Below the pieces are notes generated by a model. The model searched no databases. It saw nothing but the letters and a program-made list of their open reading frames with translations, and was not told where the DNA came from. From the IMG/VR virus record IMGVR_UViG_3300012361_000002: a stretch of 35,237 nucleotides of DNA; one strand, given 5' to 3'. Of the stretch, positions 896 to 4,705 are shown piece after piece; position 1 is the first letter of the stretch; each line of letters begins with the position of its first letter. The stretch is from an uncultured virus (IMG/VR IMGVR_UViG_3300012361_000002). Taxonomy: Duplodnaviria; Heunggongvirae; Uroviricota; Caudoviricetes. Both the position numbers and the translations under genes were made by a program.

Positions 896-2407
896 CTACT
901 CCGCTGCTTGCAGATGCCTCACGGCATTCTGCTTCGATTTCGCGAACGCAATATTGCGCGAACGAATCCACTGCGCAACCTCGAACGAGACCTCCGTCGG
1001 GACTTTCTGCATGTAGTTCGGCCATACACCGAACTTCTCACGAAACATGTGCGCCGCGCGGCCGTCCTGGCTGCCTTTCTCGCGGCAGTATTGTAGCAGC
1101 TGCGAGTAGAACAGTTGCTTTTCTGCTGGCGTATATTGCCGGCTCAGCGCCTGCCCCGTCTTCTGCATCGCGCCAGGGACGTACTCGACCAGCACGCCAT
1201 TGCGCTCGACCACGCCTGACGCCAGCGGGAGCATGTGGCCGCACTCGGTGCATGTCCGATTGAGCCGCGGGACGATCGCCTGGCACTCGGTGCACGCCCG
1301 CGGCAGCGGCTTCTTGCGCTTGGCGTCCTTCGCCTTGCCGTTCGGTTTGCCGTCGTCCAACCGATCATAATGAATATCGGTTACCAAACCGAGTTCCATC
1401 GTTGAGTTACTGTGATCCAGAATTATTGCGCAATCCTTGTTCGTCGCTGTGCGAAGACATCTGCCAATAATTTGGGTATATAGGATGGGACTCTTCGTCG
1501 GCCGCCCAAGAACCAAACACCTCACGTCCCAATCTACCCCACAAGTGAGAGTCCCGATATTTACAACCACGTCGATCTGGCCGTTGTGGAACCCGCGCTT
1601 GATCTCCTGGCGTTCCGCCGACGGCGTCTCGCCATCTTGGTACGCCGACGACACGCCCGCTTCCTGGAACCGGTAGTGGACCGTCTCGGCGTGCTTCCTA
1701 TCGACGCAGAACACGAGTGTGTTCGGCTTCCCCCACATGCGCTTCCATGTGTCGATGATGTCCGCCGTCAGCGTCCCGCCGCACATGGCGTCCGAGAGTT
1801 GATCCTTGACGTACTCGCCGGCGACGACCTTCACCTCGGACAAGTCCGGCTGCCCGGTGCAAAATACCTTGAACTTCGACAGGAGACCCTTGTCGATGAG
1901 TTCCTGCGTCGTCGCGATGATAAGCAAGGACTGGAAATACTTCCCTAGCCCCTTGGACCACGGCGTCGCCGACAGACCAATGAACGGGACGTTCTGCCAC
2001 GCAGCATCTGCCAGCCATTGCTTGTGGAAGTCGTGCAGCGAGTGCACCTCGTCGAAGATCACCGTCTTCGCCTCGGGATACGCGCTGCGGCTTTTCAGAG
2101 TTTGTATGCTGCAAATTTGGACGGGTTTTGCCCAATCAGTCATCGAGTGGTTCGCCTGGATCACCCCGATGTCCCTGATCCCCTCGGCGTAGAACGCCTC
2201 CACCGTCTGATCGATGAGACCGATCGCGTTCACTACGAACGCCAGCCTGTTACCCTTGCGAATCGCCCCATCCACGATCGCCGCCGCCATCCGCGTCTTG
2301 CCTGCCCCCGTCGGTGCCTGCATCACGACCCGCCTCACACCCTGCTGGATCGTCGCGCGCAGGTCGTCCAAACCTTGCTGCTGGTGTTCCCAAAGCGATT
2401 TGTTCAT
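896..2407 (-). CDS. SF2 DExH helicase with C-terminal Zn finger (RadD/YejH-like)
   Basis: Walker A APTGAGKT, DEVH, motif III LSATP, motif VI QIIGRCLR, and CTEC...CTEC. Confidence 0.93.
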   Translation of the reverse strand: MNKSLWEHQQQGLDDLRATIQQGVRRVVMQAPTGAGKTRMAAAIVDGAIRKGNRLAFVVNAIGLIDQTVEAFYAEGIRDIGVIQANHSMTDWAKPVQICSIQTLKSRSAYPEAKTVIFDEVHSLHDFHKQWLADAAWQNVPFIGLSATPWSKGLGKYFQSLLIIATTQELIDKGLLSKFKVFCTGQPDLSEVKVVAGEYVKDQLSDAMCGGTLTADIIDTWKRMWGKPNTLVFCVDRKHAETVHYRFQEAGVSSAYQDGETPSAERQEIKRGFHNGQIDVVVNIGTLTCGVDWDVRCLVLGRPTKSPILYTQIIGRCLRTATNKDCAIILDHSNSTMELGLVTDIHYDRLDDGKPNGKAKDAKRKKPLPRACTECQAIVPRLNRTCTECGHMLPLASGVVERNGVLVEYVPGAMQKTGQALSRQYTPAEKQLFYSQLLQYCREKGSQDGRAAHMFREKFGVWPNYMQKVPTEVSFEVAQWIRSRNIAFAKSKQNAVRHLQAAE

Positions 2408-2416
2408 GTTGCGCCC

Positions 2417-2632
2417 TCACCGATTTGCAACCGTTGGTCCAAAACCGGTGTCGCGCGCGTGTCGCGCGTATACGTTCCCCCCTAGTTTGTTTAAGAAAGA
2501 TTGCTCTCCAGTACAAAGTTTTCCTTCTCTTCCTGCCTTCCTCTCTTGTTTCCCTTCTTGGAGAGGCAAAACAACAAATGAAGGAAGCAAGATGGGGTTA
2601 CCTGCGCGCGCGAGGGCAAATGTCTGGAACAT
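2417..2632 (-). CDS. Hypothetical small protein or replication-region remnant
   Basis: GAGGAG 8 nt before ATG at 2632; purine-skewed tract and CGCGCG runs. Confidence 0.35.
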   Translation of the reverse strand: MFQTFALARAGNPILLPSFVVLPLQEGKQERKAGREGKLCTGEQSFLNKLGGNVYARHARDTGFGPTVANR

Positions 2633-2733
2633 GGGCACGTCTCCTCGTTCCCAGGGAACTTGTCCCGGGTGGTTGTGGTGGTATCAATGTGGTTCACACC
2701 TCGCCGTGGCCTTTGGCGAGGTTCGACGTTACT

Positions 2734-3084
2734 TCAGGCAGCGAGCTTCTTTTGGGATTTAGACTTAGCGAAGTGCTCAGCCAGTTTTGCCAGAGCTTGA
2801 TCCTGATCAGACTTCGTTACCTTGCCGCACGGCTCTCCGGACAGGTCGACGCGATCGACGTCTTCGACAAGGCAGCGTCGGTATCTGATTGTCTTGGTAT
2901 ATCGGTAGAGGGTACGGTTGATCTTCTCTTTGCTGAGGAGCGGTAATTGTTCTTTGAGATCGACGTGGATGCCGATCTTGAGGGGTTTTGGATTAGCCTT
3001 CCAAGCAAAAAATGCCTTTGGAAATACGGCTATCAATACCGGAAGCATCTCTCCGGGGATGTTTCGTTTGGGACTAGGCGACAT
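2734..3084 (-). CDS. ProQ/FinO-domain RNA chaperone
   Basis: FPKAF...PKPLKIGIHVDL...LYRYTKTIRY...RVDLSGEPCGKVT matches the ProQ/FinO signature (PLKIGI, Y, RxDLxG). Confidence 0.92.
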   Translation of the reverse strand: MSPSPKRNIPGEMLPVLIAVFPKAFFAWKANPKPLKIGIHVDLKEQLPLLSKEKINRTLYRYTKTIRYRRCLVEDVDRVDLSGEPCGKVTKSDQDQALAKLAEHFAKSKSQKKLAA

Positions 3085-3089
3085 GGAAA

Positions 3090-3111
3090 CCCCTCATTCT
3101 TGGTCGAGGGG
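3090..3111 (-). promoter_or_regulatory. Hairpin sequestering the ProQ/FinO Shine-Dalgarno
   Basis: mRNA reads CCCCTC-GACCAAGAAT-GAGGGG-TTTCC-ATG; the SD is paired in a 6-bp stem. Confidence 0.6.
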
Positions 3112-3112
3112 A

Positions 3113-3141
3113 TTGACGAGACGAGATATTTTACATATTTC
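3113..3141 (+). promoter_or_regulatory. Sigma70-type promoter of the antisense sRNA
   Basis: TTGACG-17 nt-TATTTC immediately before a two-hairpin, U-tract unit. Confidence 0.55.
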
Positions 3142-3146
3142 ATCTC

Positions 3147-3225
3147 TTGGATGCGTAGCCGACCAAAGCACTTCGCATCCGAACCCGGCGGTTGAGGCTA
3201 CGGCCTCCTGCCGGGGTTTCTTTTT
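3147..3225 (+). ncRNA. ~80-nt two-stem-loop sRNA antisense to the proQ-operon leader
   Basis: Stem TTGGATGCG/CGCATCCGA with a loop containing CGACCAA, then a C(UACG)G-capped hairpin and TTTCTTTTT. Confidence 0.65.
3182..3225 (+). terminator. Intrinsic terminator
   Basis: CCCGGCGG-TT-GAGGC-TACG-GCCTC-CTGCCGGG followed by a T run. Confidence 0.75.
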
Positions 3226-3495
3226 GTAATCCCGCCGTCATGTGTTCGTCAACCAGCATTGTGCTGTTGATAACTATGTGAATACGCAACGTCTCGTATA
3301 GTGTGCCAGCGCTAACGCTAGGGATTGATTCCGCGGGTCGACATCCTTGTCCGGCAATGAGTACACTCCGCTTTTGCGGAAGCGCGACAAGGAACCGGAG
3401 GATGTCTTTCTGGGAACTATCGAGCCCCGCGGTGCCCGACAGGGAATACACCTTGCCGCACCGATGGGAGCATAGCGCCATGGTATCGCGTTGAG

Positions 3496-3536
3496 GTCAA
3501 CACCGGTTGACGCCACGAATCATCTGGGCATAAGGT
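3496..3536. promoter_or_regulatory. Back-to-back -35 elements (palindrome) with a rightward promoter
   Basis: GTCAAC-ACCG-GTTGAC palindrome; TTGACG(3507)-18 nt-TAAGGT on the + strand. Confidence 0.5.
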
Positions 3537-3541
3537 CACTT

Positions 3542-3678
3542 GCTCCGCGGCAGCTACAACAGCCTTTGACGATTTGGGAGTCGGAGGAAGCTATGTGCTG
3601 GAGACGGTCATTCCCAAAGGCCAACCCTCCAGATTACCTTCCCACGCTGGGCTGGCGACCAAGGGCTAGCTGCGGAGC
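3542..3678 (+). ncRNA. ~140-nt structured RNA with closed ends and complementary loops
   Basis: Stems GCTCCGC/GCGGAGC, AGCTA/TAGCT, GCCTTT/AAGGGC, GGAAG/CTTCC and CTGGAG/CTCCAG; loops TTTGGGA and TCCCAAA are complementary. Confidence 0.6.
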
Positions 3679-3693
3679 GCTTCTCCACCACTG

Positions 3694-3723
3694 TTGACGC
3701 CGCGTCCCGCGCGGGATTAGCGT
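3694..3723 (+). promoter_or_regulatory. Putative sigma70 promoter
   Basis: TTGACG-18 nt-TAGCGT upstream of the hairpin/tRNA-like cluster. Confidence 0.4.
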
Positions 3724-3869
3724 TCCACATGGTTCGTGGTGCGCCTTGCTGAGTCACCATCTGCGGTGCCAGGGTCGGGTCCATCGCCCCCCTATCCCTC
3801 CGGCCCTGGCGTCGTCAGCTATTAATTCTGCCGTGTGCTTGGACGTGGAAATCTAGTACTCGGCAGATC

Positions 3870-3917
3870 GACGGCGGCAGGCTGGGTAGGTCGCAAGACT
3901 TGCAGCCTGCCGCCGTT
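3870..3917 (+). other. Long GC-rich hairpin with GCAA tetraloop
   Basis: ACGGCGGCAGGCTG/CAGCCTGCCGCCGT perfect 14-bp stem capped by GTC-GCAA-GAC. Confidence 0.6.
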
Positions 3918-3923
3918 AGCTAC

Positions 3924-4018
3924 GATCCCGTGGCGGAACGGTAGACGCGGCAGGATAGGTCTGCCGGCATCGGAACCACTCTCACGATGCCGTGGAGGTT
4001 CGAATCCTCCCGGGACCT
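3924..4018 (+). tRNA. Degenerate tRNA-Leu(TAG)-like RNA (pseudo-tRNA)
   Basis: Acceptor GATCCCG/CGGGACC, Leu-type D arm TGGCGGAACGGTAGACGC, T arm GGAGG-TTCGAAT-CCTCC and long variable arm. The anticodon loop is shortened and no CCA is encoded. Confidence 0.65.
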
Positions 4019-4045
4019 CTTAACAATGCAGGAGACATCAACAAC

Positions 4046-4705
4046 ATGGCAAAAGCGGCAACGAAGAAGAACAAATCCGGCAAGGTCGACGGCCGGTCGA
4101 AGGCGGCGCGAGCCGCGAAGGCAAAGACTGGCAGTGGCGGCAACGGCCGCGATCTGCATCTGTCAGATAACGGCGGGAATCAGGAGGCGATCCAGGCCAG
4201 CTTCCTGCAGCACCGCAACCTATGGAACAACGCCATCGCCAAGCTGAAGGTGGCCGAGAAGGCGCTGAAGGAGGTTGTAGCCGACGCCAAGGCCGAAGGA
4301 TTCTTGAAGCTACACTTCCAGATCGCCGACGCGCTGACGGCTGGTCCCAAGAAGGAGGCCAAGGTCGTCGGCGAGGTGAAGAACCGTCTTCAGGTGGCCC
4401 GCTGGATCGGCCACGCGATGGGCAAGCGGATCGACCTCAACCAGCTCGACCTGTTCGCTCCGGACAAGCCGGCCGGCGACCCGGTCCAGGCTGCCTACGA
4501 GGACGGCGAGAGGGCCGGCCTGGGAGGCGTTACGGCGAACGTGCCTGGACAGTATTCAGCCAACGAACTCTCACAGGCGTGGCTCTCAGGCCACCACAAG
4601 GGGCAGTCCACGCTCCATAAGGGCATCAAGCCGCTGGAGGAGAAGACGGACAGCGTCGTCGGGCCTGCCGCCGGCTGGGGTGCGTCGAAGGCGACAACGG
4701 CATGA
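4046..4705 (+). CDS. Basic protein with GapR/DUF2312-like middle and Rmf-like C-terminal segment
   Basis: AGGAG upstream; Lys-rich N-terminus; LKEVVADAKAEGF; AYEDGERAG...QAWLSGHHKG. Confidence 0.6.
   Translation: MAKAATKKNKSGKVDGRSKAARAAKAKTGSGGNGRDLHLSDNGGNQEAIQASFLQHRNLWNNAIAKLKVAEKALKEVVADAKAEGFLKLHFQIADALTAGPKKEAKVVGEVKNRLQVARWIGHAMGKRIDLNQLDLFAPDKPAGDPVQAAYEDGERAGLGGVTANVPGQYSANELSQAWLSGHHKGQSTLHKGIKPLEEKTDSVVGPAAGWGASKATTA

Follow-up and report, generated by a model that had tools for sequence, protein, structure and literature searches.

A candidate loop-loop and antisense RNA switch in the leader of a phage proQ/FinO-domain gene

To our knowledge, the only genes for which a pseudoknot and an antisense RNA are described as competing for the same hairpin loop are the rep genes of a few enterobacterial plasmid groups. 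The sequence upstream of a proQ/FinO-domain gene in a 35,237-nucleotide stretch of DNA from an uncultured virus of the Caudoviricetes (IMG/VR IMGVR_UViG_3300012361_000002; the whole stretch is referred to as the window) suggests a competition of the same kind. In the plasmid ColIb-P9, the loop sequence GGCG is described as pairing with CGCC next to the rep Shine-Dalgarno (SD) sequence, which keeps the initiation region open, and the Inc RNA competes by kissing the same loop (PMC4705826). FopA, a FinO-domain protein, binds Inc and speeds the pairing (PMC9977716). The elements of the phage locus that enter into the comparison are the following, hairpins being those of the minimum free energy (MFE) fold of the leftward mRNA leader.

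2734-3084, - strand: proQ/FinO-domain gene (PF04352), 116 aa, start ATG 3084
3252-3223, - strand: putative leftward mRNA promoter (TTGACG 3252-3247, 18 nt, TACAAA 3228-3223), predicted start near 3216
3215-3184, - strand: hairpin 1 of the leader; the same DNA forms the + strand terminator stem
3180-3149, - strand: hairpin 2, the target stem-loop (stem GGAUGCG/CGCAUCC, 18-nt apical region)
3166-3160, - strand: loop 7-mer UUGGUCG in the apical loop of hairpin 2, including a YUNR-type UUGG
3146-3118, - strand: hairpin 3, predicted in three phages with differing sequences; overlaps the spacer of the putative antisense promoter
3111-3090, - strand: hairpin 4, SD-sequestering in the MFE folds (stem CCCCUCG/UGAGGGG, 8-nt loop)
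3106-3100, - strand: partner 7-mer CGACCAA, made up of loop bases and the top two stem bases of hairpin 4
3149 to about 3224, + strand: predicted cis-antisense RNA (~75 nt, both ends predicted) made up of two hairpins followed by a U tail
3184-3225, + strand: intrinsic terminator (stem 3184-3215, U-run 3217-3225), its inner part called by a terminator scan
3113-3141, + strand: putative antisense promoter (TTGACG 3113-3118, 17 nt, TATTTC 3136-3141)

This layout resembles that of IncI-alpha (ColIb-P9 repZ/Inc), IncB, IncK, and IncL/M, in which a short cis-antisense RNA lies in the leader, roughly 100 nt before the start, and competes for a target loop that is also complementary to a distal site at the SD-masking structure (PMC4705826, PMC10724649). 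The original prediction had invoked the IncI/IncB logic, and the opposition of antisense RNA and pseudoknot over one loop does fit it (PMC4705826, PMC9977716). The phage loops UUGGUCG and, in a relative, UUGGCCG also resemble the 5'-rUUGGCG-3' named in the title of reference 37 of PMC4705826, and they hold the YUNR-type UUGG (PMC4485353).

Unlike the IncI-type elements, however, the locus belongs to a phage and not a plasmid, and the cistron encodes a ProQ/FinO protein and not a replication initiator. The partner is already exposed in a hairpin loop and not buried, and the pairing spans 7 bp (up to 9), compared with the 4-base GGCG/CGCC core described for ColIb-P9 (PMC4705826). The partner lies in the SD hairpin, as in the IncI type, in the window and in the related leader L001, but not in the related leader L011. 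The phage antisense RNA would have two hairpins, and no sequence similarity to the plasmid RNAs was detected: an Rfam search at E up to 1 returned no family except tRNA, leaving 3085-3252 unmatched.

FinP/traJ/FinO of F-like plasmids and RepX/repA of pRSF1010 likewise comprise a cis-antisense RNA of ~75-80 nt that has two stem-loops and ends in a run of U, and the elements concerned encode a FinO-domain protein as well (PMC8136791, PMC9977716); the predicted two-hairpin, U-tailed shape of the phage RNA resembles known FinO ligands (PMC8136791). Whereas FinP and RepX cover the ribosome-binding site (RBS) of their targets, the phage antisense RNA, predicted to begin at 3149, ends ~65 nt upstream of the start codon and does not overlap the proQ RBS (SD 3095-3090). 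In addition, the gene behind the phage leader is the FinO-family gene itself, L011 holds the RNA elements without proQ, and no Rfam family was matched in the region at E up to 1. In the copy-number control systems FopA-Inc (pCol1B9) and PcnR (IncI2), too, a mobile element combines a structured leader and an antisense RNA with a FinO-domain protein that acts together with them or alongside, but the protein's own gene is not reported to be the regulated cistron (PMC9977716, PMC8053102). By sequence, the phage leader falls outside the Inc, FinP, and ctRNA families; in the model set out below it would work as the IncI switch does, simplified and in a setting new to that mechanism.

Pairing between two loops of the leader

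The leader was compared with those of L001, another viral contig whose ProQ is 88% identical, and of L011, which was found through its helicase (90% identical); two metagenome contigs, L002 and L003, match the window without a difference over 1885 nt. Between the window and L001, 15 differences were counted by eye in 169 columns of the leader (alignment A5), whereas 41.0 of the 81.2 synonymous sites of proQ differ, so that the leader is roughly five times more conserved than neutral sites. This conservation begins exactly at TTGACG 3252-3247 and extends to the start codon.

Every feature on which the original prediction was built was found in the sequence at the position it had given, the upstream loop lying 53 nt from its complement. 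The - strand leader folds into four hairpins with -66.8 kcal/mol (z -4.72), and none of 200 shuffles was equally stable; the folds of the relatives gave z values of -4.41, -3.28, and -3.72, the last for the L011 equivalent of the + strand RNA. In hairpin 4, CCCCUC (3111-3106) is paired with the SD GAGGGG (3095-3090), which stands five bases before the AUG of proQ (ATG 3084). The partner CGACCAA had been placed in the loop of this hairpin; that is true of ACCAA, which lies within the 8-nt loop, while C3106 and G3105 form the top two stem pairs. The stability of hairpin 4 is -10.8 kcal/mol in the window and -12.0 in L001. In L011, hairpin 4 is absent, the equivalent of hairpin 2 has a shifted stem, and hairpin 3 is of different sequence.

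The loop 7-mer of hairpin 2, UUGGUCG, is the exact complement of CGACCAA further down the same mRNA. The corresponding pairs are UUGGCCG/CGGCCAA in L001 and UUGCCGG/CCGGCAA in L011, where the partner lies 61 nt downstream of the loop, at the place to which MAFFT aligns the partner of the window. Covariation of the two 7-mers, which the original prediction had put forward as the check on the pairing, was tabulated by hand for the three distinct leaders, and matching two-sided changes were found in both L001 and L011. All 21 of 21 cells are Watson-Crick pairs, and in the ungapped register a two-sided change is seen at 3 of the 7 positions. Two of the 15 leader differences between the window and L001 form such a matched pair, a T to C change in the loop of hairpin 2 and an A to G change in the loop of hairpin 4. 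The helix grows to 9 bp in the window and L001 through U.G and G.U pairs at its flanks, which only the - strand RNA can form.

The frequency with which such a match arises by chance was estimated with dinucleotide shuffles. A complement of at least 7 nt within the next 110 nt was found in 206 of 5000 shuffles for the window, 202 of 5000 for L001, and 296 of 5000 for L011, that is, in 4-6% for each phage, and the window shows no enrichment of the word TTGGTCG (8 found, 5.7 expected). The 7-nt match alone is therefore only modestly unlikely, and it is the comparative data that raise the pairing above chance. These results support, at the level of sequence, the conclusion that the loop-to-loop pairing is evolutionarily maintained.

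The pairing is also affordable in energy. Against an MFE of -57.2 kcal/mol, releasing the two 7-mers takes 5.0 kcal/mol, and the duplex between them gives -11.2 kcal/mol before any pseudoknot penalty. A nested fold containing the same 7 bp was 7.4 kcal/mol worse than the MFE, and a loop-loop (kissing) pseudoknot is therefore the plausible and preferred form.

Two other partners were tried and rejected. The helicase RBS contains GGACCAA, complementary to 6 nt of the window loop, but this match was dismissed as chance because GGACCAA is invariant in the three phages while their loops change. A second copy of TTGGTCG, at 3656-3662 (- strand), is not conserved in L011.

The opposite-strand RNA and its promoters

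On the + strand, the region 3140-3232 folds with -40.6 kcal/mol (z -4.46), and again none of 200 shuffles was equally stable; the L011 equivalent has -37.1 kcal/mol. The terminator, hairpin and U-run together, is kept in all three phages, with an invariant U-run. Its hairpin is more stable on the + strand than on the - strand in each of them (-26.4 and -20.9, -26.7 and -20.8, and -23.0 and -21.6 kcal/mol, respectively), because G.U pairs of the + strand become A.C on the - strand. This advantage of the + strand, 1.4-5.9 kcal/mol for the sequence of hairpin 1, is preserved by the differences among the three phages.

Upstream of this unit, the -35 box TTGACG is invariant in the three phages despite the diverged hairpin 3 sequence in L011, and it is followed after 16-17 nt by a -10-like box, TATTTC, TATCTC, or TATGTC. 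From the spacing of TTGACG 3113-3118 and TATTTC, transcription is expected to begin near 3149, at the base of the antisense hairpin. The leftward promoter likewise has a core that is invariant in the three phages. The pattern TTGACG-N16-18-TA occurs at four sites in the window, 3113 (+), 3252 (-), 3507 (+), and 3694 (+), all within 3113-3719, against 1.58 expected window-wide, and it looks like the promoter type of this control region. Of the antisense unit that had been proposed, the strand-biased terminator, the TTGACG box, and the stable two-hairpin fold stood up to the comparison, whereas the promoter was not called by a generic sigma-70 scan. We infer that both RNAs are made, with the ends listed above.

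Some smaller observations concern the same elements. The sites at 3252 and 3694 share GGGATTA ahead of the -10-like box. The hexamer TTGACG itself is enriched in the window (40 found, 24.4 expected), a count matched by 0 of 100 shuffles. Hairpin 3 corresponds to an imperfect inverted repeat which, in the putative antisense promoter, lies after the -35 box and before the -10-like box; in L011 (about 2953-2988) it reaches -16.9 kcal/mol on the other strand, compared with -9.4, which leaves the acting strand ambiguous. Hairpin 3 could be a protein operator instead of, or besides, an mRNA hairpin.

Competition for one loop and its alternatives

In the mechanism proposed here, the leftward mRNA would start near 3216 and fold into the four hairpins, while an RNA of ~75 nt would be transcribed from the opposite strand, from ~3149 to the terminator 3184-3225, and would be fully complementary to hairpins 1 and 2. 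The loop UUGGUCG of hairpin 2 could pair with only one of two partners at a time, the antisense RNA's loop or CGACCAA in the same mRNA. The internal kissing pseudoknot would loosen the SD hairpin and permit translation of ProQ; the antisense RNA, by occupying the loop of hairpin 2, would prevent the internal pairing and turn ProQ off. We give a probability of about 0.55 to such a competition between antisense RNA and internal pairing for one loop, as in IncI/IncB rep control. That the pairing would activate, opening the proQ RBS, and not repress is inferred by analogy with those plasmid systems.

Several points weigh against this proposal. The leader appears to lack a leader peptide, a defining feature of the IncI type: four AUGs precede the proQ start, at 3178, 3143, 3135, and 3098, but none of them has a properly spaced SD or is conserved in L011, and the changes seen in L001 are non-synonymous. 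AUG 3143 opens a 37-codon frame that passes the proQ start out of frame. A second defining feature is likewise absent: the account of the IncI-type rep genes in PMC4705826 stresses a weak SD and a GUG start, whereas proQ has an AUG with a strong SD. The pairing must break just 2 of the 7 pairs of hairpin 4, so that AGGGG may stay paired and G3095 alone of the SD be freed. Neither putative promoter was called by the generic sigma-70 scan. MAFFT sets a one-base gap within the L011 loop, which makes the number of compensatory columns dependent on the register and leaves the perfect 7-bp match within each phage unaffected. Scans of viral, metagenome, and genome sequences yielded only three distinct leaders: among viral contigs only the same two each time, among metagenome contigs the L001 contig and two copies identical to the window, among genome contigs no match to the ProQ protein, the alignment, or a DNA pattern, and in the phage collection no match to the DNA or to the ProQ protein. 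The nearest virus record does not contain this region.

Finally, in L011 the promoter block, the terminator, and hairpins 1-3 persist together with the covarying pair, but proQ and the 3' arm of hairpin 4 are missing; homology with the window resumes just past the proQ stop. This arrangement indicates that proQ and the SD hairpin form an indel cassette and that the switch predates proQ or reaches beyond it; a recent loss of proQ from L011 is the alternative. The original prediction of a switch self-contained around ProQ has to be given up, because this relative holds the RNA elements without proQ.

The arrangement in L011 also bears on an alternative in which the pairing and the antisense RNA are real, but translation is not activated: the pairing would shield the loop or compact the leader, the antisense RNA would lead to cleavage, decay, or polarity of the leftward transcript, and the SD hairpin would be a bystander. 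The loop, partner, and antisense unit of L011 persist without proQ or an SD hairpin, the partner standing 93 nt before the start of the next conserved ORF (open reading frame), and complementarity between the antisense RNA and ~69 nt of the 5' end of the mRNA, like the freeing of only G3095, would suit such an outcome. The partner nevertheless falls exactly in the loop of the SD hairpin in both phages that carry proQ, which is the IncI-type arrangement, and no ribonuclease or Rho site is readable in the sequence. This alternative is judged unlikely.

A second alternative dispenses with a discrete antisense RNA. Here the + strand terminator would insulate the rightward genes, and the cis pseudoknot would answer to, for example, temperature or ProQ binding. 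PcnR, a member of the FinO family, provides a precedent, being described as binding an mRNA stem-loop directly and independently of an antisense RNA (PMC8053102), and the antisense promoter, besides escaping the consensus scan, has a -10-like box without the usual final T. In the ORF list of the window, however, the + strand has no gene on the left for which a terminator would be needed; all three phages have TTGACG, correctly spaced from the hairpin, and the four sites of the TTGACG-N16-18-TA type cluster here. These results make the absence of a discrete antisense RNA improbable.

It is more improbable still that the two 7-mers are half-sites of a protein-bound DNA inverted repeat, an operator or initiator site, that change together to fit one protein. 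Such a repeat would produce identical two-sided changes, and the region is one of divergent promoters; but the half-sites are spaced by 53 nt in the window and L001 and by 61 nt in L011, so that their helical phase is not kept, both 7-mers are apical in conserved RNA hairpins, and the G.U extension to 9 bp exists only for the - strand RNA. Antisense-driven transcription attenuation of the pT181 or pIP501 kind, in which antisense binding would let the G+C-rich hairpin 4 terminate at the following UUUCC (window) or UUUUC (L001), is just as improbable: no - strand terminator was called in 2300-4100, the U-run counts just 3-4 bases and runs into the start codon, and L011 is without hairpin 4.

Returning to the competition model, one joint and quite speculative extension of it would have ProQ bind the two-hairpin, U-tailed antisense RNA, in the way that FinO binds FinP and FopA binds Inc, speed its kissing with hairpin 2, and so repress its own synthesis in a homeostatic loop. 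The loop and its partner would serve as a fast-changing specificity by which related co-infecting phages escape each other's antisense RNA, and proQ would have been captured, as a cassette, exactly at the partner site of an older switch. If this joint reading were true, the loops would be a phage counterpart of plasmid incompatibility groups.

In word searches of the open-access literature, neither a phage example nor a FinO-family gene controlled in this way came up, which is not proof of absence. If the competition is real, the pseudoknot/antisense mechanism would extend to phages of soil bacteria and would operate there without a leader peptide, via two pre-exposed loops. The 116-aa FinO-domain protein and the ~75-nt two-hairpin RNA would then be a compact candidate pair for studying RNA choice by a minimal FinO domain. 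The presence or absence of proQ in near-identical leaders is a natural experiment on the recruitment of a chaperone gene behind an existing RNA switch.

The proQ gene and its surroundings

The assignment of the cistron to ProQ/FinO, made originally from the translation, was borne out by a match to PF04352 (E 5.1e-25; 88 bits, cut-off 27; profile positions 7-108 of 109). Its closest solved relative, by phmmer against the PDB, is the N-terminal domain of E. coli ProQ (5nb9, E 6e-11), followed by 6s10, RocC (7rgs), and NMB1681. Conserved RNA-binding residues described for E. coli ProQ are K35, G37, D41, K54, R58, Y70, L71, R80, D82, and G85 (bioRxiv 10.1101/822791). In the phmmer alignment to the PDB chain, whose numbering offset was deduced, the phage protein keeps eight of these ten (K36, G38, D42, K52, Y68, R78, D80, and G83), whereas R58 and L71 are replaced by N56 and R69, respectively.

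The start is set at ATG 3084 because the first twelve residues are conserved in two relatives, P0002 and P0003, and because codon 13, which a gene caller chose as the start elsewhere, is Val (GTT) in one relative. P0003, a protein on record, is 73% identical to the phage ProQ. Compared with L001, the ratio of non-synonymous to synonymous change (dN/dS) is 0.074, indicating that proQ is under purifying selection.

By tblastn, the nearest ProQ relatives lie on Mesorhizobium and Sinorhizobium plasmids (~40% identity). Five distant ProQ loci, on two viral contigs (38%) and three rhizobial plasmids (~37-41%), have no obviously similar leader, antisense terminator, or SD hairpin. L013, with a helicase 75% identical to that of the window, was set aside as a relative; its upstream region is not collinear and has no antisense terminator.

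Domain searches of the window proteins identify the replication and recombination region of a soil phage, with genes for an SF2 helicase, a RuvC-like resolvase, a second helicase, an HNH endonuclease, a DNA methyltransferase, exonuclease VIII, and RecT. Downstream of proQ, the leftward row continues as follows.

2417-2638, - strand: small ORF of 73 aa between proQ and the helicase gene, open also in L011 and L012
896-2407, - strand: SF2 DNA helicase with ResIII and Helicase_C domains (phrog_16, E 4.5e-76), in the same leftward row as proQ

The switch had been placed in front of the helicase operon; it does not directly precede the helicase, as the small conserved ORF intervenes. The ORF has no Pfam or PHROG match. 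Its counterparts lie at 1484-1723 in L012 and within 3036-3317 in L011 (73-79 aa across the three phages), the frame being restored over several indels with both ends conserved and a low-complexity middle, and its stop codon overlaps the helicase SD. Upstream of proQ, 3085-3990 is a divergent non-coding control region, of which 3085-3252 is best explained as the leader that controls the early genes for replication and recombination in the leftward row.

Several further observations were made in and around this region. An island of ~28 nt at 3314-3341 (- strand) is kept in all three phages, within a stretch that in L001 has otherwise diverged or been replaced. L011 has an additional 70-aa ORF at 3292-3504, right before the helicase, that the window and L001 lack. 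At the rightward end, a 96-nt tRNA-like gene, its extra arm 26 nt long, lies at 3924-4019 (+ strand); ARAGORN reads it as tRNA-Thr(GGU), its Rfam tRNA score of 31.3 bits is narrowly over the threshold of 29, and in its place L011 has an unrelated 111-aa ORF. The gene overlaps the 5' end of ORF 3992-4705 (+ strand), the first rightward protein, whose true start is probably ATG 4046. This ORF, 237 aa as listed, has homologues in L011 and L013, matches phrog_26995 (function unknown), and shows in its C-terminal part a sub-threshold match to ribosome modulation factor (PF04957, E 0.0018, 18.7 bits, cut-off 27.9).

On another viral contig, L007, a replication-type gene comes after a distant ProQ-like gene (38% identity). 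Upstream of the latter, at about 1390-1440, a long-range 10-bp stem ends directly at its SD-like AGGGGA, and with this stem a ProQ RBS may be masked by other means.

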